Assembly (NCBI GenBank): GCA_018829965.1
Contig: JAHJTG010000013.1
Span: 1 to 57,920 of the forward strand
From: Patescibacteria group bacterium
GTDB taxonomy: Bacteria; Patescibacteriota; Minisyncoccia; Minisyncoccales; Staskawiczbacteraceae
DNA: 57,920 bases
Reading direction: 5' to 3'
This document shows positions 7,792-56,631 of this stretch, one piece after another. The translations under genes and the position numbers were made by a program. Every line of letters begins with the position of its first letter. The first letter of the stretch is position 1. A model generated the notes under the pieces. It did no database searches, had not been told where the DNA came from, and saw only the letters and a list, made by a program, of their open reading frames with translations.

Positions 7792-8856
7792 GATTTAAGT
7801 AAGCTCAACGAAGTTTTAAAAGACGAACCGTCTTATCGTCAAAAACAGGCGCAAAAAGCTGTTTTTCAGGATTTAGCGGATAATTGGATGCAGGTACAAA
7901 CTCTACCTATTGAATTGAGAAAAGAACTGAAAAAGAGTTGTCCGCTAAAAATAGATTTTCAAGCGTCTGTTTCTCAAGACGAGAAAGTGATTAAAGGATT
8001 GATCACTCTTAAAGATGGATTGAAGGTAGAGACGGTTTTAATGAAGCATGGCGATAATCGAAATACGGTTTGCGTTTCTTCCCAAGTCGGATGCCCTTTG
8101 GGATGTGTCTTTTGCGCAACAGGGAATATCGGTTTTAAAAGAAGTCTTAGTATCTACGAAATTGTCGAGCAAGTGCTGTTTTTCGCCCGTTATTTGAAAA
8201 GCAAGGGACCTGCCCGCAGTGGCTTCGCCCGCCAGACACGCCGACTCGAGTCGCGCGGGCTGGCTACAAGCGATGCAGGCGGGGAGAGGATAACAAATGT
8301 CGTATTTATGGGAATGGGTGAGCCATTCTTGAATTACGATAATGTTCTGGGGGCGATACGGATACTAAATGATGAAGAGAGGTTTAATTTAGGCGCTCGG
8401 CATTTTTCTATCTCTACTGTCGGGATAATAGAAGGAATTGAAAAGTTTTCTCAAGAAAAACTGCAAGTTAACCTAGCTATTTCTCTGCATGCTCCGGATG
8501 ATAAATTACGGTCAGAGATTATGCCGATTAACAAAAAGTATTCTGTGAAAGAAGTATTAAAGGCAGTGGACGAGTATATAAAAAAAACAAAAAGAAGAGT
8601 AATGTTTGAATATGTTATGATAAAAGATGTAAATGATACTGATGAGTGCGCGAAAGAATTAGCAAAATTAGTAAAGAAGCCACTTTACTTCGTAAACTTA
8701 ATTTTGTACAATCCGACTGGCATTTTTAAGTCATCTGAACCCGCAAGAATTAAAAGGTTCAAAGAGATTTTAGAAAAGTATGGCGTACCGGTTACTCAAA
8801 GGTATCGTTTTGGTAAAGACCTTAAAGCTGCTTGTGGCCAGTTAGCGGGAAAATAA
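7789..8856 (+). CDS. rlmN: 23S rRNA/tRNA adenine-C2 methyltransferase (radical SAM) RlmN
   Basis: CPLGCVFCATG radical-SAM cluster and RlmN-like ends. Start moved to ATG 7789, since the track start 7762 lies in element K. Confidence 0.9.
   Translation: MDLSKLNEVLKDEPSYRQKQAQKAVFQDLADNWMQVQTLPIELRKELKKSCPLKIDFQASVSQDEKVIKGLITLKDGLKVETVLMKHGDNRNTVCVSSQVGCPLGCVFCATGNIGFKRSLSIYEIVEQVLFFARYLKSKGPARSGFARQTRRLESRGLATSDAGGERITNVVFMGMGEPFLNYDNVLGAIRILNDEERFNLGARHFSISTVGIIEGIEKFSQEKLQVNLAISLHAPDDKLRSEIMPINKKYSVKEVLKAVDEYIKKTKRRVMFEYVMIKDVNDTDECAKELAKLVKKPLYFVNLILYNPTGIFKSSEPARIKRFKEILEKYGVPVTQRYRFGKDLKAACGQLAGK
8209..8284 (+). repeat. GC-rich intragenic hairpin element, family GCI-1 (in rlmN)
   Basis: CCTGCCCGCAGTGGCTTCGCCCGCCAG...GGCTGGCTACAAGCGATGCAGGCGGGG, read through as PARSGFARQTRRLESRGLATSDAGG. 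Confidence 0.8.
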
Positions 8857-21314: not shown

Positions 21315-22385
21315 ATGAAGGATATTAATTTTCCGATATTCAAAACAAAAAGCGATACATACAAAAAATTTGACTTAACCAATTTTGACCAAAGACAGGC
21401 GTATTTTGAATACAAGACAGGAGAAGAAATAAAAAAACTTAGAGAATATTTAAAGAAGAATACTTTTGTGGTTTACCTTTTAGGGAAAAAAGGTTCTGGG
21501 AAAGGGACTTATTCAAAAATGCTGAAAGAGGTGATTGCTCCGGATAAAATAGCCCATTTTTCTATTGGAGATATGGTGAGGTCCTTTGATGAAATTATAG
21601 GAGATGAAAAGAAAAAAAAAGAATTAATTTCTTTCTTGGAAAAAGAATACAGGGGATTTGTGCCGTTACAGGATATAATCAAATCATTAGAAAATAGAAG
21701 CACGAAAACTCTTTTGCCGACTGAATTAATTTTGGCATTGGTAAAAAGAGAAATTCAAAAATTGGGCAAGAAAGCAATTTTTATTGACGGATTTCCGAGA
21801 GACCTAGATCAGATTTCCTACTCCCTATTTTTTAGAGATTTGATAGGATATAGAGATGACCAGGATATTTTTGTGCTTATTGATGTTCCGACTTCGGTTA
21901 TTGACGAAAGGATAAAATTTAGAGTAATTTGCCCTCTTTGCCAAACTTCAAGAAGCTTGAAGCTTTTGCCTACAAAAAAAGTTGAATACGACAAGGAAAA
22001 TAAAAAGTTTTATCTCGTCTGCGACAATCCTGATTGCAGCGGGGCAAAAATGGTTACGAAAGAGGGAGATGAATTAGGGATAGGACCGATTAAAGAAAGG
22101 TTAAGCAAGGACGAAATTTTAATAAAACAGGCATTTTCATTAAACGGAATACCAAAAATTCTTTTAAGAAATTCTATTCCAATTGATAAAGCAAAAGAAT
22201 TTGTTGACGATTATGAAATTACTCCGGAATATTGCTATGCTTTTAATGAAAAAGAAGACAAAGTTGAAGTAATAGAAAAGCCATGGCAGGTCTTAAATGA
22301 TGAAGGGGTTGCTTCAAACAGCTTAATGCCTCCACCGGTAGTAGTTTCTTTAATAAAGCAATTAGTAAAAATTCTTAATATTTAA
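21315..22385 (+). CDS. Long adenylate-kinase-like NMP kinase paralog with a zinc-knuckle lid
   Basis: P-loop LLGKKGSGKGT plus CPLC...CDNPDC. 356 aa, against the canonical adk at 55878. Confidence 0.55.
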   Translation: MKDINFPIFKTKSDTYKKFDLTNFDQRQAYFEYKTGEEIKKLREYLKKNTFVVYLLGKKGSGKGTYSKMLKEVIAPDKIAHFSIGDMVRSFDEIIGDEKKKKELISFLEKEYRGFVPLQDIIKSLENRSTKTLLPTELILALVKREIQKLGKKAIFIDGFPRDLDQISYSLFFRDLIGYRDDQDIFVLIDVPTSVIDERIKFRVICPLCQTSRSLKLLPTKKVEYDKENKKFYLVCDNPDCSGAKMVTKEGDELGIGPIKERLSKDEILIKQAFSLNGIPKILLRNSIPIDKAKEFVDDYEITPEYCYAFNEKEDKVEVIEKPWQVLNDEGVASNSLMPPPVVVSLIKQLVKILNI

Positions 22386-22386
22386 T

Positions 22387-22414
22387 TTGACTTACTTTTT
22401 TTAAGAGTTAAAAT
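22387..22414 (+). promoter_or_regulatory. Promoter candidate TTGACT-16-TAAAAT
   Basis: Hexamers at 22387-22392 and 22409-22414. It would drive a ~165-nt non-coding transcript ending at terminator 22556-22586. Confidence 0.35.
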
Positions 22415-22555
22415 TAAAGTAGTCCTGCTTTTTCTATATTAAAATTTCTAACAAACCTTTTTTAAAGGAGTTCAATATTTATTCAGGCTGTGGTCTGAAT
22501 GTGAGAGCACCTACTTTGATTTTTTTAGAAAATCAATAGAGAAAGGCACGACACC

Positions 22556-22586
22556 AAAAAAGCGACGCTTCACGTCGCTTTTTTAG
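22556..22586 (+). terminator. Rho-independent terminator
   Basis: AAAAA-AGCGACG-CTTCA-CGTCGCT-TTTTTT. Confidence 0.7.
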
Positions 22587-22636
22587 TTTTCTTTGATTAG
22601 TATCTCAAATTATTATAAAATAAAAATAGCTGTTCT

Positions 22637-22808
22637 CAACACCCGGTGTTGTTAAATCAATTAAATCAACACCCGGTGTTGAACACCCGTGTTGTATAAA
22701 ATATTTGTAAAAAAGTACACAAAAGTAAAACAATAAAACAATTAGAACACTTCGCATTAACGGAACACTAACGGAACACCCGGTGTTCCGTTAATAAACG
22801 GTGTTCTA
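22637..22808 (+). repeat. REP-like cluster (left of the RAYT gene)
   Basis: CAACACCCGGTGTTG at 22637 and 22667, CGGAACACCCGGTGTTCCG at 22782, and degenerate half-sites between them. Confidence 0.85.
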
Positions 22809-22820
22809 TTAATAAATTAT

Positions 22821-23546
22821 ATGCCTTCAAGAGAAGTTCAATTTTATCCAGGAGAATTTTATCATATTTATAATCGTGGCAACGCAAAGCAGGATATTTT
22901 TTATAATGACAGGGATAGATATAGATTTCTTCAAGCAATGTATTTATCAAATAATAGCGATTGTTCTGTTCGGCTAATGGAATTAGAAAAAAATAAAAGC
23001 GGATATACCCTTGCCGATATAAAAAAAGTTTTTAATGAAGGAAAAATTTCTTATAATCCATTGGTTAGAATAAGCGCTGATGTTTTAATGCCTAATCATT
23101 TTCATTTGCTGATTGAGGAACTGCAAGAGAAGGGGATCAGTCGTTTTATGCAGAGGTTGGGAGATAGTTACGGGAAATATTTTACTATAAAATATGATCG
23201 TCCGGGCAGTTTGTTCCAGGGTCGTTTTAAGGCAGTTCATATAAAAAATGACGATCAACTTAGATATTTATTGGCTTATATTAATGCGATAAACCCGGCG
23301 CAATTAATAGAACCAAAAATTAAAGAAAAAGGTATTGAGGATTTCCAAAAAATATTAGAAGGAATAAATAAATATTCATGGGGTACTCATTTTGAATATA
23401 TGGGCAAGAGAGAATCTGCTATTATTGATAAAGGATTATTGGGAAAAATTTTTTCAACTCCAGAAATTTATTACGAATTTATCAAAGAAATTTTACATGG
23501 GAAAGAAGATATGTGGAGCCCCATAGAAGGATTAATGCTTGATTGA
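22821..23546 (+). CDS. IS200/IS605-like HUH Y1 transposase, REP-associated tyrosine transposase (RAYT)-like
   Basis: HUH motif LMPNHFHLLIEE, Tyr motif LAYINAINPA, N-terminal FYHIYNRGN. Confidence 0.75.
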   Translation: MPSREVQFYPGEFYHIYNRGNAKQDIFYNDRDRYRFLQAMYLSNNSDCSVRLMELEKNKSGYTLADIKKVFNEGKISYNPLVRISADVLMPNHFHLLIEELQEKGISRFMQRLGDSYGKYFTIKYDRPGSLFQGRFKAVHIKNDDQLRYLLAYINAINPAQLIEPKIKEKGIEDFQKILEGINKYSWGTHFEYMGKRESAIIDKGLLGKIFSTPEIYYEFIKEILHGKEDMWSPIEGLMLD

Positions 23547-23554
23547 TTGAAAAT

Positions 23555-23670
23555 GGTGTTTCAACACCCGGTGTTGAACACCAGGGAATCAACACCCGGT
23601 GTTGATTGAACGCCCCTCAACACCCGAAACGCTCAACACGAATACTCAACACCCGGTGTTGAACACCCGA
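23555..23670 (+). repeat. REP-like cluster (right of the RAYT gene)
   Basis: TCAACACCCGGTGTTGA at 23561, 23589 and 23646, plus half-sites CAACACCCGAAAC and GAACACCCGAAAA. Confidence 0.85.
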
Positions 23671-23796: not shown

Positions 23797-26700
23797 ATGT
23801 TGTGGCAGATGAAAAATAAAACAAGCGGGTTTCGTAAATCTGGCTTGTGGAACACCCGGTGTTCCACAAGTGGTAAATCCGCCAGGCTAAAATCTTTTTT
23901 GAGTTCGCTATTAAACGGGATTATAATCGCCGGTATTTTTTCATTTATCTTTTACGCTTTTGCCGCGCCACCCGATAGTCCCTATAATCCAGGAGAAATT
24001 CTTAATCCCAGTTGTGCGCCGGGGGATGCTTATTGTACAGTGCTTACGCCAGCAATTTCTGGTAATAATACTGACATCACCGGCCTAAGAGGACTGAATA
24101 CTCAAGAAGCAATTAAAATTTCGCCTTTTGGAACTTCAACAGGTGAAACAGGAGAAATTAGATTTTTGGAATTATCTGCCGGTGGAACTAATTATATTGG
24201 CTTTAAATCTTCGGATAGTTTAACTGCTAATGTTATTTGGGTTTTGCCGGATGCAGACGGAAGTACAAGTCAAGCTTTAATAACCAATGGCTCAGGTAGT
24301 TTAAGTTGGGGAGACGTTCAAGCTTACGATGCTGATTTAACAACTTACGCGGGAATAACTCCAAGCGCTAATATTCAATCATTTCTTGGTTCAGCCGACT
24401 ATGCTACTGCAAGAACTAATCTCGGAGTTGCTATTGGAAGCAATGTTCAAGCTTACGAAGCAACACTTACAGGGCTCGCTAGCATGCCAGCTACTGTAGG
24501 TTTTGTGAAACAGACAGCAGAAAATGTATTTGGAATAGATGAGAGCGTTTATCTCACTGCTGAAACCGACCCTGTTGTGAAAGCCCTTACTGGCATAATT
24601 AAATCTGATGGTTCTACAATATCCGCAATTACCGACAATTCTTCTAATTGGGACGCGGGATATACTTATCGTCTCATTTCTGCCAGCGGAACTTCTCCTT
24701 TAACCTTAACTTTAGCGAGCAATGGATTAACAGGGAGCATAGCCGATGCTACCGCTTCAACAAAAGGAATTGCATCGTTCAATTCCACAAACTTTTCTGT
24801 AGCTTCTGGCGCGGTAAATACGATACAGGATATAGCGACAACTTCTAGCCCTACTTTTGCAGGACTGACTTTAAGCGCCGCAAACATTGTAACCGACACG
24901 ACAACAGGAACAAAAATAGGAACAGCAACTGACCAGAAGCTCGGGTTTTTCAACGCTACTCCTGTTATTCAGCCGACAAGCACCACTGAACTAAGACAAG
25001 CTTTAATTGATCTGGGGTTATACGCTTCAGGCGGAGCAACTCCGCTTAATTTAAATGGCGGGGCGTTTACCACCACAGGCACTCTCGGAGCAGGGGCGAT
25101 AACAGGGACTTCTCTGAGTGCTGGTTCTGGAACACTTACCGCGGGGATAGGAACATTAACAAGCCTTAATCTTACGGCAGATACCAATCAGATAGTTTTA
25201 GATTCCGATGGGACATATACCACTACCCTTACAGGTGGTGCAACTGGTTCATCTAAAATTATTACTTTTCCCGATATTACTGGGACCGTTGCCCTTACTA
25301 CAGGAGCAGGTGGTTTATCTTCTTATCTACCACTTGTAGGTGGCACTATGGCAGGAGATATTTTACTTACGGGAACAGTAAATCTTGGTGCTACTGGAAG
25401 CCGTTTTACTAATATATGGGGAACGACCATAACAGGGACTTCTCTTACCGACGGCACAGCAACTTTATCAGGGGGAAACCTAACTGGTATGGGTGATATT
25501 ACAGGAACGGATATTGACTTATCTTTAGGCACTGGTGATATTTTAACCTCTGGGACTTTAGGTGCAGGGGCTACTACTTTAACAGGTGATTTGATTGTAG
25601 ACGAACATAGCGTTTATATAAATAGTGCTTTGGGGGACGAAATTGCACCTGCACTTGAAGCCGCTAATTGGACTTTAGGTGCTATGTGGTCAGCAGGAGC
25701 AGGACAATTAGTAAGAACTTTCATTTATCCCGCATCAAGCACAGCAACCCCGTCAGGAACTTTTACGATTACAGCAGGTCATCTTTATAAAGTTACAATT
25801 ACCGCCTCTGCAGTTAGCGGAACAATTACTTATACGCTTGGTGGTGTGTCGGGAACGGCTATCACAGCAACGACAATTACAGATTATATAACAGCCACAA
25901 CTACTGGTAAGATAATCTTTACAGGTGCACCATCGGCTACTTGCACGATAACTTCTGTAAGTGTTAAAGAGGTTACTACTGATGGTGATTTGACGGTTCA
26001 GGGAGATGCGTCTATTTGGGGTGATTTGACAATTACGGGCACGGTTCTAGATGTAGCGAAAATTGAGAGAGCTTATATAGGAACATCTGGTTATGACTTG
26101 CCGTCAGCTACAAGTTATTTCACAGTAGCACATGAAGGTTCTGGATTTATTAAAATGGCTGGTTTTACAAACGTTGCGGAAAGTGGCACTGCTATTCGTG
26201 CTATGAGAGGACGAGGAACGATAGCATCTCCAGCAGTTGTCGCTGAGAATGATAGAATGTTTGCGTTTCAAGCGGGTGCTTTGGATTCCGACCTTGCCGA
26301 GAACTTTCCCGCACAAATGGCTTTTTATGTTGATGGTGCTGTTAGTGCTGGGAATATCCCCACAAGGTTTTCTATCAGCACAGGATATTCAGCAGGAACA
26401 AGAACAGAATATTTAATAGTAAAATCATCAGGTGATGTATGGTTGCCCGTAGATGACCAAGAATTATTATTTGGCACGGCACACGACTTTGGAATAACCT
26501 TTAACGGAAGTGGTGGTGTAATTCAATCTGATTTAGTAACCGCAACCGACTACTTACAACTGCGTGGCGGGACAAATGGGATAGATTTTAATATAGGGGC
26601 AACGGAACAGATAAGTTTAATTGATGGTGTATTGCAACCCACAACTACAAATGATATAGATTTAGGAACTTCCTCGTTGCTTTACAAAGATATTTGGGAA

Positions 26701-28143
26701 ACAGGGAATCATTATTTTAGGGATAGTGCTATTTATATCGCAAGTTTAGATGATGGACACCTTGACTTGACGGCGGATGTTAGTATTGATTTGAATGGGG
26801 TAGTTATGCTCGGAACTTTAGGAGTCACCGATACCGCTACTCATCTTTGTAGAAATAGCAGTAATCAAATCGCTGGTTGTAGCGCCGATATTTCAGAATA
26901 TGCGCCGACAGCAGATGATGTTGGAGCTGGCGATATCGTAATGGTAAGCAAAGACAAGGAAAATCCAATTGAAGACCCGACCACTCCTTTCTTATTAGAA
27001 AAATCTTCTGAAAAAAATCAAAAAGAAATTATAGGGGTGATAGCGGATATTGCTGGCGGCGCATCAATTGGAGAGAAGAAAGGGGAACATTACAAACCAT
27101 TGGTTTTAGTTGGAAGGGTGCCTGTTAAAGTATGTGGAGAGAACGGCGCCATTGAACGGGGCGATTATCTTACTTCTTCTTCAATCCCGGGAGTAGCAAT
27201 GAAGGCAATAGAGCAAGGTTCAGTTATAGGAAAAGCATTAGAGAGCTATAACGGATCAGAGGTTGGTAATATTATGACTTTTGTTAATCTCGGTTGGTAT
27301 GGAGGAGAGATTGTTGGAAGCGGTTCTTTGGCGGATGTGGGAATTGAAGACAATGTAAGCCTTATTCAGAGAATAAAAGATATCTTTGTCTCATTGGGTG
27401 TCGCGATTGAAAACGGCGTAATGACCTTAAAAGAAATAATTGCTGATAAACTTACGGTCAAAGTCGCTAAAATAGAAAAATTGGAAATGGTTGATGGCAC
27501 GACCGGCGAAATTTACTGTACCTGGATTGAAAATGGAGAATGGCAGAAGGTAAAAGGAGAGTGCGGAATAGAGCAATCTCCGGTGCCAGAAGTTTGCGAT
27601 TCAAACCATCTGAATTTATGCCAAAATGAAACAGATTGCACAGTTGCCAGTGGTCATTGGTATAATGAAGTTTGCAATAATGAGCAACAAAATGATGGCG
27701 GTCAAGAACCTGTGGCGGTTTGCGATATTGATAATTTGAATCTGTGTTTGATTCAAACTGATTGTGAGGCTAATGTCGGCTATTGGTACAACGAAATTTG
27801 TAATAGCGAACAACAGGTGGTAGTTTGTGTCCCTGGCTGGCAATGTAGTGAATGGCAGCTGACTGCGGACACTGTTGCTTGCAATGAAACTTTTACTCAA
27901 ATTCGAATCTGCGCTGATTTAAATAATTGCGGCTCTGATGAAGGGAAACCAACCGAACAACAAGAAGCCGTTGGAATTCAAAATTGTCAGACCGGATTTG
28001 AGCCTGAACCTGAACCCGAGCCTGAACCTGAACCGACACCCGAACCCCCGCCTTCGCCAGAGGCTACGGCGGGCGAACCAGAACCCCTGAACCAGAACCC
28101 GAGCCTGAATCTGAGCCCGTTGAAACACCATAATAATTTTTAA
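23797..28143 (+). CDS. Giant (1448-aa) N-terminally anchored surface protein with Thr/Gly-rich fibre-like repeats, Cys-rich modules and an (EP)n tail
   Basis: Long uninterrupted ORF with a TM span at residues ~35-55, TGT/GTL-rich beta-like repeats, and duplicated CD..NLNLC..TDC..G.WYNE.CN modules. The start is uncertain because a REP copy lies in codons 18-24. Confidence 0.7.
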   Translation: MLWQMKNKTSGFRKSGLWNTRCSTSGKSARLKSFLSSLLNGIIIAGIFSFIFYAFAAPPDSPYNPGEILNPSCAPGDAYCTVLTPAISGNNTDITGLRGLNTQEAIKISPFGTSTGETGEIRFLELSAGGTNYIGFKSSDSLTANVIWVLPDADGSTSQALITNGSGSLSWGDVQAYDADLTTYAGITPSANIQSFLGSADYATARTNLGVAIGSNVQAYEATLTGLASMPATVGFVKQTAENVFGIDESVYLTAETDPVVKALTGIIKSDGSTISAITDNSSNWDAGYTYRLISASGTSPLTLTLASNGLTGSIADATASTKGIASFNSTNFSVASGAVNTIQDIATTSSPTFAGLTLSAANIVTDTTTGTKIGTATDQKLGFFNATPVIQPTSTTELRQALIDLGLYASGGATPLNLNGGAFTTTGTLGAGAITGTSLSAGSGTLTAGIGTLTSLNLTADTNQIVLDSDGTYTTTLTGGATGSSKIITFPDITGTVALTTGAGGLSSYLPLVGGTMAGDILLTGTVNLGATGSRFTNIWGTTITGTSLTDGTATLSGGNLTGMGDITGTDIDLSLGTGDILTSGTLGAGATTLTGDLIVDEHSVYINSALGDEIAPALEAANWTLGAMWSAGAGQLVRTFIYPASSTATPSGTFTITAGHLYKVTITASAVSGTITYTLGGVSGTAITATTITDYITATTTGKIIFTGAPSATCTITSVSVKEVTTDGDLTVQGDASIWGDLTITGTVLDVAKIERAYIGTSGYDLPSATSYFTVAHEGSGFIKMAGFTNVAESGTAIRAMRGRGTIASPAVVAENDRMFAFQAGALDSDLAENFPAQMAFYVDGAVSAGNIPTRFSISTGYSAGTRTEYLIVKSSGDVWLPVDDQELLFGTAHDFGITFNGSGGVIQSDLVTATDYLQLRGGTNGIDFNIGATEQISLIDGVLQPTTTNDIDLGTSSLLYKDIWETGNHYFRDSAIYIASLDDGHLDLTADVSIDLNGVVMLGTLGVTDTATHLCRNSSNQIAGCSADISEYAPTADDVGAGDIVMVSKDKENPIEDPTTPFLLEKSSEKNQKEIIGVIADIAGGASIGEKKGEHYKPLVLVGRVPVKVCGENGAIERGDYLTSSSIPGVAMKAIEQGSVIGKALESYNGSEVGNIMTFVNLGWYGGEIVGSGSLADVGIEDNVSLIQRIKDIFVSLGVAIENGVMTLKEIIADKLTVKVAKIEKLEMVDGTTGEIYCTWIENGEWQKVKGECGIEQSPVPEVCDSNHLNLCQNETDCTVASGHWYNEVCNNEQQNDGGQEPVAVCDIDNLNLCLIQTDCEANVGYWYNEICNSEQQVVVCVPGWQCSEWQLTADTVACNETFTQIRICADLNNCGSDEGKPTEQQEAVGIQNCQTGFEPEPEPEPEPEPTPEPPPSPEATAGEPEPLNQNPSLNLSPLKHHNNF
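23848..23866 (+). repeat. REP-like copy inside the annotated 5' end of the giant gene
   Basis: TGGAACACCCGGTGTTCCA, translated LWNTRCS. Confidence 0.8.
28046..28075 (+). repeat. Short GC element family GCI-3 (in the giant gene tail)
   Basis: CCCCGCCTTCGCCAGAGGCTACGGCGGGCG, translated PPSPEATAGE. Confidence 0.6.
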
Positions 28144-28190
28144 CTAAAATAGCTATTACAAAAATCGTAATTTTATGTTAAAATAACAGT

Positions 28191-28505
28191 ATGAAAACGC
28201 TCCAAAAAACCTCTCTTTCAAATTTAAAGAAGTATTTTTGGGAAGTGGATGCCGATAAACTTGATTTTAAAAAATATCCAGAATATGTTATTTCTCGGGT
28301 TTTGGAATATGGCGACGAAACGGCAGTAAGATGGTTATTTAAGAATTTTAAAAAACCATATTTAAAAAGAGCATTAATTAAAAGACGAGACATTTCAGCT
28401 AAAACCGGTAATTATTGGGGATTAATTTTGGGTATTCCTAAAAATAGGATTTTATGTTTGAAGAAACAATCTCGAAACAAACAAAAGAAAACCTGGAAAT
28501 TTTAG
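28191..28505 (+). CDS. Small partner protein of the AbiEii-like gene (putative antitoxin, DUF6922-like)
   Basis: KYFWEVDADKLDFKKYPEYVISRVLEYGDETAVRWL pattern. Overlaps the downstream NTase-like gene by 52 nt. Confidence 0.45.
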   Translation: MKTLQKTSLSNLKKYFWEVDADKLDFKKYPEYVISRVLEYGDETAVRWLFKNFKKPYLKRALIKRRDISAKTGNYWGLILGIPKNRILCLKKQSRNKQKKTWKF

Positions 28506-29095
28506 GAAAGTTAAAGGTATTAAAGGATGCTTATCTCGCCGGCGGCACTGCCTTGGCTTTGCAAATAGGCCATAGGGTTTCTTACGACCTCGATTTTTTT
28601 ACTGACAAGAAATTTCAGGCCCAGATTTTTTTAAAAAAAATTAGCCAGATTAAATCATATCGTCACGAACTGATTGAATGGGGAACAATATTGGGAAAAT
28701 TGGGTAATGTAAAATTTAGCGTTTTTTATTATGATTATCCATTATTAAAAAAAACAATCCAATTTAAAAATATCAATATAGCCAGTATCAATGATATAGC
28801 CGCCATGAAAATAGCGGCAATTAGTGAAAGGGGCGCAAAAAGAGATTTTATAGATTTATATTTTATTCTCCAAAAATTTACTCTTCCTGAAATACTTGAT
28901 TTTTATAATCAAAAATACAAAAAATTGTCCTCCAATCTGATTCATATAAAGAAAAGTTTAGTTTATTTTAATGATGCTGAAGAAGAAGAAATGCCGAAGA
29001 TGTTAAAACGAATTTCTTGGAATGAGGTAAAATTATTTTTCCAAAAAGAAATAACCAAATGCGCGGCTTATGAATTATTAATTAAGAAAATTTAA
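28454..29095 (+). CDS. Nucleotidyltransferase AbiEii/AbiGii-like toxin family protein
   Basis: YLAGGTALALQIGHRVSYDLDFF and AAMKIAAISERGAKRDFIDLYFIL motifs. Confidence 0.6.
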   Translation: MFEETISKQTKENLEILGKLKVLKDAYLAGGTALALQIGHRVSYDLDFFTDKKFQAQIFLKKISQIKSYRHELIEWGTILGKLGNVKFSVFYYDYPLLKKTIQFKNINIASINDIAAMKIAAISERGAKRDFIDLYFILQKFTLPEILDFYNQKYKKLSSNLIHIKKSLVYFNDAEEEEMPKMLKRISWNEVKLFFQKEITKCAAYELLIKKI

Positions 29096-29109
29096 AAATT
29101 ATAAAAACT

Positions 29110-31440
29110 ATGCCAAAAAATTCATCTTCCGTGATAAGCGTTTGCGAAAAAATTTCAAAAATCAGCGTCTATTTACTTGTTTTTTTATTGCCTATTTTCT
29201 TTTTACCTTTAACTGTTAGTCCATTAGAAATCAACAAACAGATGCTGGCTTTAATTTTGGTTTTTATTGCTTTCCTTTGCTACCTTATCCGTTCTATTAA
29301 TAGTCGGACTATTTCTTATCCTAAAAACCTTTTAGGTTTAGCAGTTTTGTCTCTTTTAATAGTAACAGGCATAAGCGCTATTTTTTCTAGAGCTCGGGGA
29401 GTTAGTTTTTTCGGAAATTTCGTTCAAGTTGACACTTTTTTATGCTTTATTATCTATGGCTTAGTTTTCTTTTTAGCCGCAGTTTTATTTAAAAAAGAAG
29501 ATTTTTCAAAAATTGGTCTCTGTTCTTTGGGTGGTTTTGTTTTATTGATGATTTTTGGCTTGTTTCAAATTTTCGGTAAGTTTATTTTACCTTTTGCTTT
29601 CACTCATTTTATTAATTTCAATACTATCGGATCAGTCGTCAGCTGGGGCATTTTTATTACTCTTGGCTTAGTAACAATTATAACGGTTTTGACCAATTTT
29701 AAACTTTCCAAGTTCTTAAAAATTATTTTATTTTTAGTCGGTCTTTTAACGGCAATAGTTCTATTTTTACTTAATTATCAATTGATTTGGGTTGAGTTAG
29801 TTTTGATAATGTTCTTACTTATGGTTTTGCGATTTGCGTCAAAGACGGATATAAATTTGCCTTTAATAATTCTTACTGTTTCTCTGCTTTTTATTTTTAT
29901 CAATCAACAATTGCCGTCTTTGATAACAATGCCGGTAGAGCTGCGTCCCAATCTTAGTACTACTTTAACAGTGGCTAAGGATGTTTTATCCGGTAATTCC
30001 TCACCGAATATTTTATATGGGGCAAAACAATTTATAGTTGGTTCTGGTCCCGCCACTTTTGGTTTTTACTATTCTCGTTTTAGACCCGCGGATTTAAACC
30101 AAACTAATTTTTGGTCAGTAAGATTTAATCAGGGCTTCAGTTTTTTAACTACTCTTTTATCAACTTTAGGTATTTTGGGGCTCGGCGCTATCATTTTCTT
30201 GCTCGTTTCTTTTATTCTAAAATTGTTGAAAGATTGGAAACCTCAAAAAAATTTAGTTATTTTTATCGGCGTAAGCTTTCTGTTTATTAGTTTGTTTTTC
30301 TATCAGGCCTCTTTCAGCCAAATGGTTTTTATCTTTCTTGGTTTGGGTCTTTTGTCTATTAATTCTATTCAGAGCTTCAATATGGAGTTTTATTCAACTA
30401 ATAAATGGCAGAATATCAGAAGCTTTATGGTTTTTCTGGGAATTATTATTTTATTGAGTCTTTCTTTGTTCTTTATTTATTTAGCAAGTTTAAAATATAC
30501 AGCTGCTATTTATTACGAAGCTGGAACAAAAAGCGCCTCTTTAGCACAAGTAGCGGGCTATTTAGAAAAAGCTGTGAAATTAAACCCTCAATCAGATTTG
30601 TATTTGCGGGTTCTTAGCCAAGCACGACTTAGCCAGGCCAATGAGTTAACTAACACTGCTAATCAGCAAAATATTAAAGATGCGCAAGTCCAGTTCCAGA
30701 ATCTTATTGCTTATGCTATTAATGCCGGTCTTCGGGCAACAGAAATTAATCCGATAGATTCTGTAAATTGGTCTAATTTGGGTAGCGTTTATGAAAGTAT
30801 TATTCCAATGAATGGGGCAGAAGCTTTTGCTGAAACTAGCTATATTAAAGTAATGGAGCTTGACCCAAAAAACCCCCAATATCTTGTTGATTTAGCCCGG
30901 GTTTTAATAATTTCTGCTGACCAAGAAACCGATAAGAGTAAAGATAATAAAGCTTGGCAAGAAAAATTAGACAAAGCTAAAACCGCCTTAGATAAATCCA
31001 TTAAGCTCAAATCAGATTATGCGCCTGCTCATTTTTTAATTTCTCAAATTTATGTGCGCGAAGGCGAGCTTCAGAAAGCTATTGGAAAAGTTAATGAACT
31101 TACGATTACTAATCCGCAAGATTCCGGGTTGGCTTTTCAACTAGGTTTGCTTTATTACCAAGACGATCAGCTGGATGGGGCCCAAAATGAATTCGAGAGA
31201 GCAATTAGTTTGAATGAAAATTATTCAAACGCCCGCTATTTTTTAGGATTAATATTTAGCAAGAAAGGGCAGAAAGAAGCAGCCATCGTTCAGTTTGAAG
31301 AGATTGAAAAACTTAATCCTGAGAACGAGGAAATAAATAAAATTCTTAATAATCTGCGTTCTGGCAAAGCCGCTTTGGAGGGGGTTGTTCCGCCAGCTGA
31401 ATCACCGGCTAAACGTACTGAAACGCCTGTTTCGGATTAA
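29110..31440 (+). CDS. Polytopic O-antigen-ligase-like membrane protein fused to C-terminal TPR repeats
   Basis: About 12 TM spans, then TPR-like units (AISLNENYSNARYFLGLIFSKKGQKEAAIVQFEEIEKLNPENEE). Confidence 0.6.
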   Translation: MPKNSSSVISVCEKISKISVYLLVFLLPIFFLPLTVSPLEINKQMLALILVFIAFLCYLIRSINSRTISYPKNLLGLAVLSLLIVTGISAIFSRARGVSFFGNFVQVDTFLCFIIYGLVFFLAAVLFKKEDFSKIGLCSLGGFVLLMIFGLFQIFGKFILPFAFTHFINFNTIGSVVSWGIFITLGLVTIITVLTNFKLSKFLKIILFLVGLLTAIVLFLLNYQLIWVELVLIMFLLMVLRFASKTDINLPLIILTVSLLFIFINQQLPSLITMPVELRPNLSTTLTVAKDVLSGNSSPNILYGAKQFIVGSGPATFGFYYSRFRPADLNQTNFWSVRFNQGFSFLTTLLSTLGILGLGAIIFLLVSFILKLLKDWKPQKNLVIFIGVSFLFISLFFYQASFSQMVFIFLGLGLLSINSIQSFNMEFYSTNKWQNIRSFMVFLGIIILLSLSLFFIYLASLKYTAAIYYEAGTKSASLAQVAGYLEKAVKLNPQSDLYLRVLSQARLSQANELTNTANQQNIKDAQVQFQNLIAYAINAGLRATEINPIDSVNWSNLGSVYESIIPMNGAEAFAETSYIKVMELDPKNPQYLVDLARVLIISADQETDKSKDNKAWQEKLDKAKTALDKSIKLKSDYAPAHFLISQIYVREGELQKAIGKVNELTITNPQDSGLAFQLGLLYYQDDQLDGAQNEFERAISLNENYSNARYFLGLIFSKKGQKEAAIVQFEEIEKLNPENEEINKILNNLRSGKAALEGVVPPAESPAKRTETPVSD

Positions 31441-31448
31441 CGAGAAAG

Positions 31449-31500
31449 CGGTGTTCAACACCCGGTGTTGCGGAGTGGTGCGTTCAACACCCGGTGTTGC
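31449..31500 (+). repeat. REP-like pair
   Basis: CAACACCCGGTGTTG at 31456 and 31485, both preceded by GTGTT/GCGTT. Confidence 0.85.
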
Positions 31501-31581
31501 AGGGTTTAGGATTTAGAGGAAAACATTTAATGGAAAACGTGGAACGAAAAATTTTAAAATCATTTAATAGAAATCAGTAAA

Positions 31582-32964
31582 ATGATTGGTAGCTTAATAA
31601 AATCTGTAAATAAAAATTCTACTAAATCTTATATCCTATGTTCTATATTCCTTTTTTTATCCCTATATTCTATATTCTATATCCTATATCCTAAAACTAT
31701 CTTCGCTTCAACAACTGACGGTACGATCAACGCTATTTATAAATACTCTTGGTCAGAAAATATGGGCTGGCTTAATTTTGGTACTAGCGGCGGAAATGTT
31801 CATATTACCGATACTGCTTTGACAGGTTATATTTGGAGCACGAATTATGGTTGGATTAATCTAAATCCCACAGAAGCCGGCGTGACAAATAATGGAGAAG
31901 GAACTCTTTCTGGTTATGCTTGGGGTGAGAATTGCGGTTGGATAAATTTCAATGGCGTTGCTATAAATTCTGATGGTGAGTTTGCTGGTTATTCTTCAGG
32001 GGTAATCAGTGGTGATATTAGTTTTGATTGCGCTAGTTGTATGGTGAAAACTGATTGGCGACCAAGAAGTTCAAGACCTGCTTGTAATAATGCTTTAGAC
32101 GATGATAGCGATGGAAAAGTTGATTATCCAGATGACCCAGGTTGTTCTTCTTTGGATGATACTGACGAAACAGACGCTGTTGTGCCACCATCTGGAGGGG
32201 GTGGCGGAGGTGGAGGATCAGCTATTATTACTCAGCAAGTAATATTTAGCGGTCGGGCTTATCCTTTAAGCAAAGTTACTATTTTAAAAGACGGACAAAC
32301 AGCAATAAATACTGTAGCTGGGCTTGATGCTACTTTTAATGTTTCTTTAGCAAACTTGTCTTCAGGTAGTTATACGTTTGGTGTTTTTAGCGAGGATAGC
32401 CAGGGGAGGCGTTCTACCCTGTTTACTTTTCCGGTAACAGTTACTTCAGGTGCTACCACAACTATTAGCGGTATTTTTCTTTCTCCAACTATAGATGTTG
32501 ATAAAATTGAAGTAAAGCGGGGAGATAATATTACTATCCTTGGGCAGAGTGTTCCTGTTAGTGAAATTACCATCGCCGTAAACTCAAACGAAGAATTATT
32601 TGCTAAAACTAAAGCTGATAAAGACGGAGTTTATTTATACAACTTTGATACTTCGCCGCTTGAGTTGGGTCAGCATAATACTAAATCTAAATCAACCCTT
32701 GATGGACTAATAACTTCCTATAGTTTAGCCGTTGATTTTAAGGTAGGCACAAAAAATATTGTTAAAGTCCCAACAAAGTGTCCGGTAAAGGCTGATTTAA
32801 ATAATGATTGTAAGATTAATTTAATAGATTTTTCCATCGCCGCTTATTGGTATAAAAGACCTTTAAGCGAAGCATTTTCAAAAATAGAAAAGGAAAAATT
32901 GAACGCTGATGGAAAAATTACATTAGTTGATTTTAGTATAATGGCTTATTATTGGACTGGATAA
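31582..32964 (+). CDS. Secreted protein with GW(I/L)NF repeats, a poly-Gly linker, an Ig-like region and a C-terminal dockerin-like module
   Basis: GWLNFG/GWINLN/GWINFN repeats, GGGGGGGG, and two EF-hand-like dockerin segments (DLNNDCKINLIDFSIAAYW, LNADGKITLVDFSIMAYYW). Confidence 0.6.
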   Translation: MIGSLIKSVNKNSTKSYILCSIFLFLSLYSIFYILYPKTIFASTTDGTINAIYKYSWSENMGWLNFGTSGGNVHITDTALTGYIWSTNYGWINLNPTEAGVTNNGEGTLSGYAWGENCGWINFNGVAINSDGEFAGYSSGVISGDISFDCASCMVKTDWRPRSSRPACNNALDDDSDGKVDYPDDPGCSSLDDTDETDAVVPPSGGGGGGGGSAIITQQVIFSGRAYPLSKVTILKDGQTAINTVAGLDATFNVSLANLSSGSYTFGVFSEDSQGRRSTLFTFPVTVTSGATTTISGIFLSPTIDVDKIEVKRGDNITILGQSVPVSEITIAVNSNEELFAKTKADKDGVYLYNFDTSPLELGQHNTKSKSTLDGLITSYSLAVDFKVGTKNIVKVPTKCPVKADLNNDCKINLIDFSIAAYWYKRPLSEAFSKIEKEKLNADGKITLVDFSIMAYYWTG

Positions 32965-32974
32965 ACAAAAGATT

Positions 32975-33880
32975 ATGAATAAATATTTAGCAATAATCAT
33001 TTTAATAATAGCGTTAGCGGGTTTTAATTTCTTTACGTCTTCAGCGGAAGCGGCTAATTTTTTTGTAGTTCCGCCAGTGTTGGCTACTGGGCAGGAGACC
33101 ACGATTATTTTGGGAATAAACACTGAAAATCAAAATATTAACGCTGTGGAGTTAAATCTTAAATTTTCAAACGATGATTTTCTTATTAAAAATATTAATG
33201 ACGGTAACTCAATCATTAATTTTTGGGTGGAAAGACCGAAGTTTTCCAATGAACAAGGGGAAGTTAGTTTTTCTGGTATTATTGCCGGCGGGTATTCCGA
33301 CAAAGACGGGGGATTGATAAAAATTGATTTAATAGCAAATAGAGAGGGAGAAAAAGAATTTTCCGTTCAAAACGCTAAAGTTTTATTAAATGACGGGCAG
33401 GGCACTGAAGCTAAGCTCACGGCAAATAGTTTGAAGCTTAGCGTCGTCGGCGCAGTTGAGCCGTCAATGGATACAAAGCCGTTAATAATTAAAGATAACG
33501 ATTCTCCAGAATCATTTCTGCCTCAGGTAGCCCAAGACCCGAATGTTTTTGACGGAAAATATTTTTTAGTATTTACTGCCCAAGATAAAAATTCCGGCAT
33601 AGACCATTATGAAATTAAAGAAAAGCGCGTATTTGAAATACTTGGTCTTAAGATAGGGGTTGCAAAATGGATTGAAGTAGAGAGTCCGTATATTCTAAAA
33701 GACCAAAAATTAAAAAGATATATTTATGTGAAAGCGATTGATAGAGCTGGCAATGAAAGAATTGAGACTTTATTGCCACAGACACCAGCGGTTTGGTACG
33801 AAAAATATTTGATTTGGAGTATACTGATAATAATAGTAATAATTGTTTTATATATTAGTAGAATTTTATGGAAAAGATAA
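32975..33880 (+). CDS. Cohesin-like domain surface protein (C-terminal TM anchor)
   Basis: The N-domain is paralogous to the next gene (SIINFWVERPKFSNEQGEVSFSGI vs SIINLWVQDPSFSNSAATINFEGI), with shared SGIDHYEI and AIDRAGN motifs. The cohesin call is tentative. Confidence 0.5.
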   Translation: MNKYLAIIILIIALAGFNFFTSSAEAANFFVVPPVLATGQETTIILGINTENQNINAVELNLKFSNDDFLIKNINDGNSIINFWVERPKFSNEQGEVSFSGIIAGGYSDKDGGLIKIDLIANREGEKEFSVQNAKVLLNDGQGTEAKLTANSLKLSVVGAVEPSMDTKPLIIKDNDSPESFLPQVAQDPNVFDGKYFLVFTAQDKNSGIDHYEIKEKRVFEILGLKIGVAKWIEVESPYILKDQKLKRYIYVKAIDRAGNERIETLLPQTPAVWYEKYLIWSILIIIVIIVLYISRILWKR

Positions 33881-35607
33881 ACTACAAAACAGACGCGAAA
33901 TTATACGTAAAACAGACGCGAAGTTTTTGTGCTGGTTTAGCGTTATTGTTTAGCGTCAGTTTAGCGTTGCCTCTCGGTTTAGCGTTGCCACTTGCCGTTC
34001 AAGCGGCAAGTTTGTATTTTTCTCCTTCCGCCGGTTCCTATGCGGTTGGCCAAAATTTTTCTGTAGGAGTCTATGTTTCCAGTTCTAACCAAGCGATGAA
34101 TGCGACTTCGGGCGTTATTTCTTTTCCTAAAGATAAGATAGGAATTACTTCTCTTTCTAAAACAGGTTCCATAATCAATTTATGGGTTCAAGATCCAAGC
34201 TTTTCAAACAGCGCTGCTACAATAAATTTTGAAGGCATTGTTTTAAATCCAGGGTTTACAGGTTCCAGCGGGAAAATTATCAGCATAAATTTTAAAGCAA
34301 AAGCAGCGGGCAACGCTTCTTTAAATTTTTCTTCTGGCTCTGTTTTAGCTAATGATGGCAGTGGTACGAATATCTTAAAGAATTTGAGTAGCGCCAAATT
34401 TGCCATAGGAATTCAAGGTCTGGAAGAATTAAAGGCGCCAAAAATTTATTCACCAACACATCCTGACCAAGGAAAATGGTACAGCAATGCTAATCCAAAA
34501 TTCACGTGGTCATTATCAGCCGATATAACTGCGATAAGAACGTTGTATAACAAAGACCCAGATTCTCAACCAACAATTTTTCTTTCTCCGGCGGTTTCTG
34601 AGCAAGAACTAAAAAATATTAAAGATGGCATCTGGTATTTTCATCTTCGACTCCGCGATGCTAGCGGATGGAGCGCAGCCTCTCGTTTTCGTTTCCAAAT
34701 TGATACCGGGAAGCCCAATTATTTTGATATAAAAGAAATAAAACGAGAAGATTTAACAGAGCCGAAAGTTAAATTTACTTTTGATTCAAGCGATGCAGTT
34801 TCAGGAATTGACCACTATGAGATTCAAATTGATAACGAAAATTTTCAAACTTGGTACGAAGGCGACTTTTATGAGACACCAGTCTTAAGCCCCGGTAAAC
34901 ATATTTTTATTGCTAAAGCCGTAGATAAAGCCGGAAACTTTTTAGCCAATTCAACAGAAATTTTTGTTCAAGCATTAGAATCGCCGAGAATTGTTGATTA
35001 CACTGAAAAATTAGTAGAAGGAGAAACATTTATTATTAAAGGTATAACTTATCCAAGAATAACCGTTAGAATGTTTTTGCAGGGAACAGATAACGGGAAA
35101 ATCATTGAGCAGGAAGTTAAAAGCAACGGAAAAGGGGATTTCTCTTTGATTTGGGAGAAAAAAATATCAAATGGTATTTATAAGTTTTGGCTGGAAGTTA
35201 TTGACGAAAGAGGCGCTAAAAGCGAACCAACAGATAAATTCAGTTTAATAATTGTTCTCCCGACCATTATAAAAATTTTAGGGATAGCTATAAACTATTT
35301 AGTTGTAATAATGACTTTATTTATTTTAATCGTTGGCGCTCTAATAATCATTCTTTATGTATGGTATCGCTTTAAAATTTGGCGGAAGAAAGTTAGAAAA
35401 GAAACTCAAGACATAGAAAAAACTTTACGCCAATCGTTTGATTTTCTTAGAGAAGAAATAGAAAAACAGGTAGCGAAATTAGATGGTAGGCCAGGTTTAA
35501 GCGAAAGAGAAAAAGAAATTTACGATGAGCTTAAAGAAGCATTAAAGATTTCCGAAGAAGCAATTAATAAAGAAGTAAAAGATATAAAAGATTTAACGGA
35601 GAAATAA
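33868..35607 (+). CDS. Cohesin-like domain surface protein, larger paralog (C-terminal TM anchor plus coiled coil)
   Basis: See the paralog. The signal peptide region is built from four GTTTAGCGT repeats. Confidence 0.5.
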   Translation: MEKINYKTDAKLYVKQTRSFCAGLALLFSVSLALPLGLALPLAVQAASLYFSPSAGSYAVGQNFSVGVYVSSSNQAMNATSGVISFPKDKIGITSLSKTGSIINLWVQDPSFSNSAATINFEGIVLNPGFTGSSGKIISINFKAKAAGNASLNFSSGSVLANDGSGTNILKNLSSAKFAIGIQGLEELKAPKIYSPTHPDQGKWYSNANPKFTWSLSADITAIRTLYNKDPDSQPTIFLSPAVSEQELKNIKDGIWYFHLRLRDASGWSAASRFRFQIDTGKPNYFDIKEIKREDLTEPKVKFTFDSSDAVSGIDHYEIQIDNENFQTWYEGDFYETPVLSPGKHIFIAKAVDKAGNFLANSTEIFVQALESPRIVDYTEKLVEGETFIIKGITYPRITVRMFLQGTDNGKIIEQEVKSNGKGDFSLIWEKKISNGIYKFWLEVIDERGAKSEPTDKFSLIIVLPTIIKILGIAINYLVVIMTLFILIVGALIIILYVWYRFKIWRKKVRKETQDIEKTLRQSFDFLREEIEKQVAKLDGRPGLSEREKEIYDELKEALKISEEAINKEVKDIKDLTEK

Positions 35608-35744: not shown

Positions 35745-35821
35745 CCGCAACACTGACTCCGCAACACCGGGTGTTGAACACATTGAACACAATGTCCGGG
35801 TGTGGAACACCGGGTGTTCCA
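35745..35821 (-). repeat. REP-like cluster, inverted orientation (AACACCGGGTGTT)
   Basis: GCAACACCGGGTGTTGA at 35761, TGGAACACCGGGTGTTCCA at 35803, with degenerate copies between them. Confidence 0.85.
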
Positions 35822-35825
35822 CTAT

Positions 35826-35888: not shown

Positions 35889-36077
35889 CTACGTGGAAAC
35901 TTTTTGCCAGGTACAAGCACTGTGTGAAATTCGCTCATACACTACCTTGATTCTCTTGGTTTTGGAGACTTGAAGCCAACCAATATTGTACTCAATTTTT
36001 TCTGCTAAGATATTCCCGGTAGAAGATGAGTACGCTTCTCCTACCACTGACTTTTCTTTGTTGTTTTCAATGGTCAT
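35889..36077 (-). CDS. Hypothetical 62-aa protein
   Basis: AAGGAG Shine-Dalgarno 5 nt upstream of the ATG, and its own terminator. Confidence 0.5.
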   Translation of the reverse strand: MTIENNKEKSVVGEAYSSSTGNILAEKIEYNIGWLQVSKTKRIKVVYERISHSACTWQKVST

Positions 36078-36163: not shown

Positions 36164-36362
36164 CATTATAATATAATAAAAAGAAAAATTAAATAGCAAT
36201 AACCAGCCCTTGAATCAAAGGTTGGTTATGATGATTAATCAAATTTTTTACCTGATTTTTCATACAATTTAACAATACTATTTAATTAGATAATTGTCAA
36301 ATATTTTTACCTGCCTAAATTTTAAAGTTTCGGGTTGCTGGGATTTGTACCCAGGTACTCCA

Positions 36363-36393
36363 CAACACCGGGTGTTGAACACACGGGTGTTGG
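36363..36393 (-). repeat. REP-like pair, inverted orientation
   Basis: CAACACCGGGTGTTG plus degenerate AACACACGGGTGTTGG. Confidence 0.8.
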
Positions 36394-36465: not shown

Positions 36466-36690
36466 TTACTTCGTTTTCGAGAAGGCCTTGATGCATTTAG
36501 CGCAAGCTAAAACTCTTTTTCCATATAATGGCTTCGCTGCTTTTGGAGATTTTGCTCCGATAGGCACTATAGTCCATTGCAAGTTAGGATATTTTCTGTA
36601 TTTTCTGGTAGGATTATATTTACCTCTAAGTTTTTTTAACTTCCAATTTACAGTAGAAGTTTTTCCGCAGATTGAACAAATTTTGCTCAT
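36466..36690 (-). CDS. rpmB: 50S ribosomal protein L28
   Basis: MSKICSICGK...NLQW pattern, 74 aa. Confidence 0.85.
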   Translation of the reverse strand: MSKICSICGKTSTVNWKLKKLRGKYNPTRKYRKYPNLQWTIVPIGAKSPKAAKPLYGKRVLACAKCIKAFSKTK

Positions 36691-38648: not shown

Positions 38649-38786
38649 TCGCTCGGTAGTAGCCATAAAAGTGGCGATAATCCAAACCCCTTACTCCGCA
38701 ACACCCGGTGTTGCGGACGTCAATCGGAGAAACCATGCAAAATCGCCTGCGAGAGGCACTTTTATAACTACCACCTCGCTTAACAG
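38647..38786 (+). repeat. Element with CGCTCGG...CCTCGCTTAACAG termini carrying a nested REP copy
   Basis: Left end AATCGCTCGGTAGTAG, right end CTACCACCTCGCTTAACAG, and inside them CCGCAACACCCGGTGTTGCGG (38696-38716). Confidence 0.65.
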
Positions 38787-38836
38787 TTTAAAAGTTAAAT
38801 CATTAAAAATTTATTAGAAATTAAAAATTCGTTATT

Positions 38837-56594: not shown

Positions 56595-56631
56595 TGGAAC
56601 ACCCGGTGTTCCACGTTAACACCCGGTGTTG
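56595..56631 (+). repeat. REP-like pair
   Basis: TGGAACACCCGGTGTTCCA and TAACACCCGGTGTTGG immediately after the adk stop. Confidence 0.85.

Follow-up and report, generated by a model that had tools for sequence, protein, structure and literature searches.

We describe a putative REPtron/TIRtron-like unit in the genome of a groundwater Patescibacteria bacterium (contig JAHJTG010000013.1). The 57,920-nucleotide (nt) stretch that was analyzed is called the window throughout. A single gene for a predicted Y1 HUH endonuclease of single-stranded DNA (ssDNA) lies there between clusters of the palindromic 13-mer AACACCCGGTGTT, which also recurs at a distance from the gene. We consider it probable that this is a REPtron/TIRtron-like system, in which a single-copy, vertically inherited nuclease is placed between its cognate hairpin palindromes. 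An earlier note on this DNA had proposed a REPtron-like unit built around a tyrosine transposase that is associated with repetitive extragenic palindromes (REPs), a RAYT. Protein family, fold, the bracketing repeats, co-divergence, a motif scan and synteny all speak for that proposal, which needs some refinement: the protein, for one, is not a canonical RayT. Judged by its sequence, the Y1 protein is a RAYT relative that fits best with TnpA-Y1 subclass 2.1, or TIRYT, and not with the canonical GTAG-REP groups. The kind of system is known; its host belongs to the tiny-genome groundwater Patescibacteria, or Candidate Phyla Radiation (CPR), for which we found no published description of a RAYT/REP system.

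The palindromic repeat and its home locus

The window contains 15 exact copies of AACACCCGGTGTT, 12 on the plus strand (starting at 22638, 22668, 22775, 23563, 23591, 23648, 23851, 31457, 31486, 38700, 56598 and 56618) and three on the minus strand (35763, 35806 and 36364). The earlier note had this count and strand distribution right, with coordinates that were off by 0-7 nt. No copy appeared in 100 dinucleotide-preserving shuffles of the window (0 expected versus 15 observed), and a search of the whole window with up to 2 mismatches allowed found no extra copies. Decayed, degenerate half-sites are visible beside the clusters, as had been remarked. Each of the 15 copies is centered in a perfect palindrome, 13-27 nt long, whose 6-13-nt arms enclose one unpaired central base, and as ssDNA these palindromes are predicted to fold into 7-12-bp stems with a CCG triloop (-4.7 to -11.7 kcal/mol). 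The three flavors of flanking bases pointed out before are real and correspond to units of 20-26 nt, here called types A, B and C, whose distant copies are 100% identical; the 24-nt unit at 22666-22689, for instance, matches 23646-23669 exactly. For a genome-wide count, the repeat sequence is to be taken as AACACCSGGTGTT, alongside these three subtypes.

The copies had been described as intergenic save one, and 14 of the 15 indeed lie outside the listed open reading frames (ORFs), which make up 79% of the window. The first copy of each cluster is outside ORFs in 7 of 7 cases (binomial P = 2e-5). The sole copy within an ORF, at 23851, falls in the first 25 codons of a 1448-amino-acid (aa) ORF, and the palindrome around it, CTTGTGGAACACCcGGTGTTCCACAAG, lies either within those codons or in the 5' leader.

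Seven copies flank ORF 22821-23546, in agreement with the clusters reported at this place, three upstream and four downstream. The gene-proximal upstream palindrome, TAACGGAACACCcGGTGTTCCGTTA, has partial arms on either side (22746-22768 and 22798-22808) and a predicted ssDNA hairpin of -10.2 kcal/mol. In the downstream cluster, three perfect palindromes (23560-23578, 23587-23607 and 23646-23662) are separated by decayed half-sites.

The Y1 protein and its relatives

The bracketed ORF encodes a 241-aa protein with the motifs NHFHLLIEE (HUH) and YLLAYINAINP (Tyr), exactly as first read, and is the only copy of a Y1 gene in the window. The protein scored 27.8 bits against Pfam Y1_Tnp, for which the cutoff is 23. 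Residues H93, H95, Y153, N158 and P159 are invariant across 28 aligned homologs, all of which (28/28) match Pfam Y1_Tnp and, weakly, NCBIfam REP_Tyr_transpos, and none of which matches another transposase model, IS200 included. These profile searches and the single copy in the window thus side with the RAYT-type assignment of the earlier note. An AlphaFold (AF2) model of the protein (pLDDT 86) found its best fold match in the PDB in 4ER8, the E. coli REP-associated transposase with a REP hairpin (E = 6e-6), and IS608 and ISDra2 TnpA ranked below it; PDB searches by protein sequence and by profile gave marginal matches only. Neither PADLOC nor PHROGs returned a match to the protein, and there is therefore no sign of a role in defense or in phages. 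The protein matches more than 4,000 clusters at 90% identity; their proteins are about 240 aa long, and those clusters that are named all come from Patescibacteria. At 50% identity, a profile search returned 818 clusters with E <= 1e-30. By its S7 and neighboring genes, the organism belongs among Staskawiczbacteria-like Patescibacteria.

The bracketed arrangement recurs among relatives. We examined 80 loci from species-representative genomes, with proteins that are 30-44% identical. At 49% of 77 loci, a 9-mer is found 4 or more times within ±500 nt of the gene, versus 2.6% of 722 control windows drawn from the same relatives' loci. At 38 of the 80 loci, one perfect palindrome, with arms of 7-25 nt and a loop of 0-4 nt, stands 0-61 nt, mostly 10-45 nt, upstream of the ATG and is repeated between -37 and +43 nt of the stop codon. 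At the gene ends, palindromes whose arms reach 8 nt or more have 24 times the density that they have in the rest of the loci. The sequence of the bracketing palindrome is specific to the lineage (for example TACAAGGTTcAACCTTGTA, AATATTCGGTCCTTgAAGGACCGAATATT and ATCACACACCcGGTGTGTGAT), and the loop of the downstream copy has the same orientation as the upstream one in some relatives and is inverted in others. Inner-arm similarity climbs with protein identity (Spearman 0.39, permutation p <= 0.0005): it is at chance level under 35% identity and reaches 4.75 of 7 positions once identity is 65% or higher. Palindrome and protein co-diverge. Judged by eye, several relatives also have -35/-10-like boxes between the upstream palindrome and the ATG.

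The locus L083, whose protein is 87% identical to that of the window, has AACACCCGGTGTT on both sides of the gene and one further copy 3 kb off, and L086 (66% identical) has TTACAGACACCgGGTGTCTGTAA upstream. The L086 homolog (8001-8774) is 257 aa long and ends in a 16-residue C-terminal extension, NHRVISYRHPVSAKIK, as if the stop codon had been lost and translation now continued into the downstream palindrome.

A metagenome scan by motif only, with a 14-mer as the query, returned 80 loci, most of which were single chance matches. A Y1 gene was present in L139 and L155 only; these are among the few multi-copy contigs of the scan, and both encode divergent Y1 proteins. The L155 protein is 25% identical and carries YIELNP, and its palindromes lie 24 nt upstream of the start (one copy) and past the stop (two copies). 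In L139 (34% identical, from another metagenome), the 13-mer occurs twice in frame within the gene itself (361-373 and 646-658), where it encodes the peptide QHRVL. One of these copies is in the variable insertion region and the other comes right after the Tyr motif, where NP is replaced by NN. Repeats inserted in frame into their own transposase gene are known from subclass 2.4 (PMC6006769). AACACCCGGTGTT is physically tied to a Y1 gene in four independent lineages, and no copy was found in 48 kb of three related genomes.

Among the known systems, class 2 TnpA-Y1 proteins carry Y-x3-NP (Quentin et al. 2018, PMC6006769). Their subclass 2.1, which equals RAYT group 1 (Bertels et al. 2017, PMC5581495) and probably also the TIRYTs (Di Nocera et al. 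2013, PMC3733652), has the motifs NH[YF]H, FQ (or W[EQ]) and Y[IV]HLNP or YIELNP, a median length of 238 aa, a Ser-motif tail and a distal domain resembling a helix-turn-helix (HTH), and no REP was found near its genes (PMC6006769). The repeats flanking the gene in TIRtrons may be self-complementary, and in a subset of genomes only they make up families of moderate abundance (PMC3733652). The TIRtrons of Di Nocera et al. are the closest published description of what we find. The proteins compared here likewise have about 240 aa, NH[FY]H, the FQ variant of the W motif (LFQGRF in the window) and a proximal W-S-[ST] tail (W-G-T / W-S-T in the window protein); most family members have Y[IV]HLNP, of which the window clade has a one-residue-longer variant, and low copy number and flanking inverted (self-complementary) repeats are shared as well. 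Unlike TIRYTs, they lack the distal C-terminal HTH in 28 of 28 members (no match to Bac_DnaA_C, HTH_23 or HTH_28 at Pfam E <= 1), carry about 30 extra aa inserted between helix A and strand 2, have no GGGGWSAS, and are flanked by perfect palindromes with loops of 0-4 nt. A Sporomusa plasmid relative matches Bac_DnaA_C. The Patescibacteria hosts are also outside the sampling of PMC3733652, PMC6006769 and PMC5581495.

With REP/RAYT REPtrons (4ER8; S. maltophilia and Marinomonas group 3; PMC3479197, PMC8266576) the window locus shares a single-copy gene with its own hairpin repeats, the best fold match, several repeat subtypes, and copies that lie between genes near 3' ends. The concentration of repeats near the gene is as in Marinomonas, and the short perfect stems with a 3-4-nt loop recall those of REP-Mb (5 bp) and REP-Sm (8 bp). 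The differences are a score below the RayT cutoff, the lack of a conserved 5' GT[AG]G guide, and direct tandem repeats in place of alternating BIMEs (bacterial interspersed mosaic elements) or REPINs.

Dispersed copies and inheritance of the unit

Eight copies occur at 5 sites away from the gene in 56 kb, all of them outside ORFs and 0-112 nt past stop codons (Table 1). For comparison, about 380 kb from the 37 relatives whose palindrome is defined contain 3 far copies. Because far copies are so rare in relatives, dispersal is a feature of the window lineage and not of the family. Two of the sites are inside conserved operons (rpsG-fusA and adk-map), in the str and spc ribosomal operons. The rpsG-fusA spacer (38649-38836) measures 188 nt in the window. 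It is 11, 2 and 2 nt long in three relatives, in which S7 and EF-G are equal in length to their window counterparts. This comparison points clearly to an insertion-like gain of about 180 nt, which contains the repeat together with an outer imperfect inverted repeat (38655-38673 / 38757-38775, 84% complementary). The latter gives a shape like that of a miniature inverted-repeat transposable element and is found nowhere else in the window. The pair at 56595-56630 fills part of the 74-nt adk-map spacer directly after the adk stop codon, the pair at 31451-31500 lies 15 and 44 nt past the stop of the TPR gene 29110-31440, and the pair at 35756-35822 is downstream of the minus-strand ORF 35889-36077. 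We also considered the palindromes as intrinsic terminators and ruled this out, because no T-runs stand behind the dispersed copies.

Repeat orientation tracks the neighboring gene, since all three minus copies follow minus-strand genes, and almost every other gene of the window is on the plus strand. A replication-strand bias is likewise consistent with the 12 plus copies (the GC skew of the plus strand is +0.14), and the two explanations are inseparable here. The minus-strand ORFs themselves, 36466-36690 and 35889-36077, are small. The former encodes 74 aa with a C-x2-C ... C-x2-C pattern, resembling a divergent ribosomal protein L28, and has no Pfam match; in L209, L210 and L211, too, the M50 peptidase gene is preceded at this place by a minus-strand gene of 61-74 aa. 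One Logan contig from each of the runs X1 and X2 joins the repeats at 22681 and 35804 via 17 other letters (GTGGAACAAGTGTTGAC), which would reflect either an extra repeat locus outside the window or a collapse of the assembly at the repeats.

Table 1. Coordinates of the Y1 gene, its flanking palindromes and the dispersed repeats in the window
Feature	Position	Strand	Details
Type A unit	22666, 23561, 23646	+	TCAACACCCGGTGTTGAACACC
Type B unit	31451; 35756 and 36357	+; reverse-complemented at 35756 and 36357	GTGTTCAACACCCGGTGTTGCGGAGT
Type C unit	23847 and 56595; 35801	+; reverse-complemented at 35801	TGGAACACCCGGTGTTCCAC
Distal upstream repeat pair	22637..22694	+	palindromes CAACACCcGGTGTTG (22637-22651) and TCAACACCcGGTGTTGA (22666-22682); decayed copy GAACACCCGTGTTG
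Gene-proximal upstream palindrome	22769..22793	+	TAACGGAACACCcGGTGTTCCGTTA; arm 12; 27 nt before ATG
Y1 HUH protein gene, RAYT/TIRYT-like	22821..23546	+	241 aa; HUH H93/H95, putative catalytic Y153, N158-P159
Downstream repeat cluster	23560..23670	+	begins 13 nt past stop codon
Type C palindrome, 27 nt, perfect	23844..23870	+	CTTGTGGAACACCcGGTGTTCCACAAG; -11.7 kcal/mol
Dispersed pair	31451..31500	+	type B unit 31451-31476; second copy 31485-31499
Dispersed pair	35756..35822	-	type B 35756-35781; type C 35802-35822
Dispersed type B copy	36357..36383	-	88 nt past stop of minus-strand 74-aa gene 36466-36690
Dispersed copy	38695..38717	+	TCCGCAACACCcGGTGTTGCGGA; within 188-nt rpsG-fusA spacer
Dispersed pair	56595..56630	+	type C 56595-56613; bare 13-mer 56618-56630

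Where two loci have Y1 proteins that are 65-86% identical, they often have 10-26 neighboring ORFs in common, and these neighbors have diverged equally or more than the Y1 gene. The Y1 gene thus behaves like a vertically inherited one, and the conserved synteny, together with the single copy in the window, makes an ordinary multi-copy insertion sequence (IS) unlikely.

The window and L083 have no neighbors in common within the sequence compared. In L210, a gene with an adenylate kinase domain (ADK-like gene), a small RNA (sRNA)-like element and dprA-comM-UPF0102 follow in this order, without a Y1 gene or palindromes. The ADK-like gene and the sRNA-like element are found upstream of the unit in the window, as in L210; in L083, the sRNA-like element lies upstream of the unit and dprA downstream. 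Because the L210 gene order links both, the units of the window and L083 stand at one ancestral junction. The unit could have been either gained in the common lineage of the window and L083 or lost in L210.

Similarity between the DNA of the window and that of L083 stops inside the downstream repeat cluster, at window position 23576. This end point is suggestive and would be compatible with repeats that mark the borders of rearrangements. The earlier proposal that repeat clusters delimit accessory modules stands to this extent, and is weakened by the fact that each cluster is simply 3' of a gene. The stretch from the sRNA-like element to the M50 peptidase/S12/S7 genes (window 23797-35607) is different in each of L083, L209 and L210. 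It holds dprA-comM-UPF0102 in L210 and L083, and a large TPR protein, an Ig-like protein and the 1448-aa protein in the window and L209; to judge from these genes, it is a variable region of predicted surface-protein genes.

In the window, the putative sRNA gene (22387-22592, plus strand) is preceded by the ADK-like gene and followed by the repeat cluster. Its promoter-like sequence reads TTGACT-16-TAAAAT, a strong terminator is located at 22556-22584, its fold z-score is -4.7, and it has counterparts in two related genomes (L083 132-335 and L210 5269-5461). Rfam returned nothing credible for the whole window at the gathering threshold or for 22380-22640 at a permissive threshold, and a tRNA/tmRNA scan found none. 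The element was ruled out as a part of the unit by L210, which carries it without Y1 gene or palindromes; it is an independent gene, because it is kept in a relative that lacks the Y1 gene. The window has two genes with an adenylate kinase domain, at 21315-22385 and 55878-56594. The first, which adjoins the Y1 unit and has the same place in L210, encodes a 356-aa protein with long extensions, and the second is an ordinary adk that closes the ribosomal gene cluster.

Possible mechanism and competing explanations

By analogy with TnpA-REP of E. coli, Stenotrophomonas and Marinomonas and with IS608, the unit might work as follows. A palindrome exposed in ssDNA, such as the lagging-strand template, would form a stem of 6-13 bp with a CCG loop. 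The Y1 protein would bind this hairpin and cut near it by means of Y153 and the H93/H95 metal site, after which the DNA would be rejoined. Units of 20-26 nt may occasionally be copied in this way to new places just 3' of genes, and the repeats may be maintained. The gene-proximal upstream palindrome would abut the promoter region, which could allow autoregulation, and the dispersed copies may have a regulatory role at RNA 3' ends. Most relatives would keep two home palindromes only, the window lineage having a small expanded population of three subtypes.

Several points weigh against a REPtron/TIRtron-like system. Catalysis and mobility are both inferred. The protein scores 30.9 bits with the NCBIfam REP_Tyr_transpos equivalog (NF047646), below its cutoff of 80. 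The Tyr motif of the window clade is Y-x4-NP (YIN[AV]INP), as opposed to the class-2 Y-x3-NP found in 77 of 82 family proteins scanned, that is, in all the more distant ones, mostly as YIHLNP. A 5' GT[AG]G tag is not consistent at the repeats, whose flanks vary (TC, GG, GC); GTGG occurs at only 2 of 15 copies and is there part of the paired stem. The perfect palindromes make both strands near-equivalent, unlike the asymmetry of REP/iREP. Given how rare far copies are in relatives, spreading repeats may not be the main job of the family, and the tracking of gene orientation agrees both with selection acting on RNA and with a replication-coupled mechanism. Finally, the copy counts refer to the 58-kb window and not to the whole genome.

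A different reading of the same observations, which we regard as unlikely, is that this very widespread Patescibacteria Y1 nuclease is a domesticated housekeeping enzyme. The two hairpins bracketing its own gene would then be its conserved substrates, and the genome-wide spreading of repeats would be an occasional side effect. It could, for example, regulate itself, maintain its locus or process hairpins that arise at the replication fork. In the window lineage, the spread copies may since have taken on a use as oriented elements at 3' ends or within operons, the str and spc ribosomal operons among them.

It is improbable that the unit is an autonomous IS200-like element, in which a cassette of about 22630-23670 would be mobile with identical hairpins as its ends, and the dispersed copies would be solo ends or miniature derivatives. 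The tight bracket of one hairpin at both ends, seen at 38 of 80 loci, does recall IS200/IS605, which also has the Y1 HUH fold and subterminal hairpins on both sides of the gene (IS608, ISDra2). In addition, the cassette is found between the sRNA-like element and dprA in L083 and is missing at the L210 junction, and the neighbors of the 87% identical copy in L083 differ on both sides within the sequence compared. However, the 58 kb contain one gene copy, synteny is kept in many locus pairs with neighbors as diverged as the Y1 gene or more, and the window and L083 units share the ancestral ADK-like / sRNA / dprA junction. The protein itself differs from TnpA of subclass 1.1: it has NP in place of the Q of Y-x3-Q, is 90 aa longer (241 versus about 150 aa) and lacks a tnpB partner nearby, and the RayT model and the 4ER8 fold fit it better than IS200 TnpA does. 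The same symmetric palindrome at both ends is a further difference from that family.

We give equally little credence to a purely regulatory system, in which the palindromes would be operators in double-stranded DNA (dsDNA) or RNA 3' elements and the Y1 protein mainly a binder or regulator that moves no DNA. Such a function would agree with clusters that stand 0-112 nt 3' of stop codons, the ones before the Y1 gene excepted; with an orientation that matches the neighboring gene even for the three minus copies; with the -35/-10-like boxes that adjoin the upstream palindrome in relatives; and with the restriction of palindromes to the gene in most relatives. Yet the family-wide invariance of the HUH and Tyr residues would imply retained catalysis, and perfect, lineage-specific arms of up to 25 nt point to base-pairing, not to contacts between protein and dsDNA. 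The missing T-runs, the identical 20-26-nt units at unrelated sites, the 186-nt spacer gain inside the rpsG-fusA operon and the in-frame copies within the Y1 gene of L139 also argue against it.

Finally, uptake signals for natural transformation occur in some bacteria as inverted pairs behind genes, and the earlier note had offered such a signal as an alternative for the 13-mer. CPR bacteria encode competence genes and the L083 unit adjoins dprA-comM, but this explanation is highly improbable and we reject it: coding copies are absent except for one at a 5' terminus, copies are clustered in tandem and tied to Y1 genes in the four lineages, a different palindrome occupies the same two positions in each related lineage, and the 48 kb of three related genomes have no copy. 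A link between the unit and dprA or comM was ruled out likewise, as it is seen in L083 only, and adjacency to dprA and to comM occurs at 1 of 80 loci each.

The role of RAYT group 1/subclass 2.1 proteins is unsettled, and earlier searches found no REP-like repeats near their genes (PMC6006769). A large branch of subclass 2.1-like proteins, in streamlined genomes some 1 Mb in size, now offers a clean repeated signature. With a core of 13 nt and a length of 241 aa, respectively, repeat and protein make a compact pair for binding and cleavage tests in vitro, and the repeats newly placed in otherwise invariant ribosomal-protein operons provide a natural case for studying how such elements spread. 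Together, these observations raise the question of whether repeats of this kind are merely tolerated, or used, in minimal genomes.

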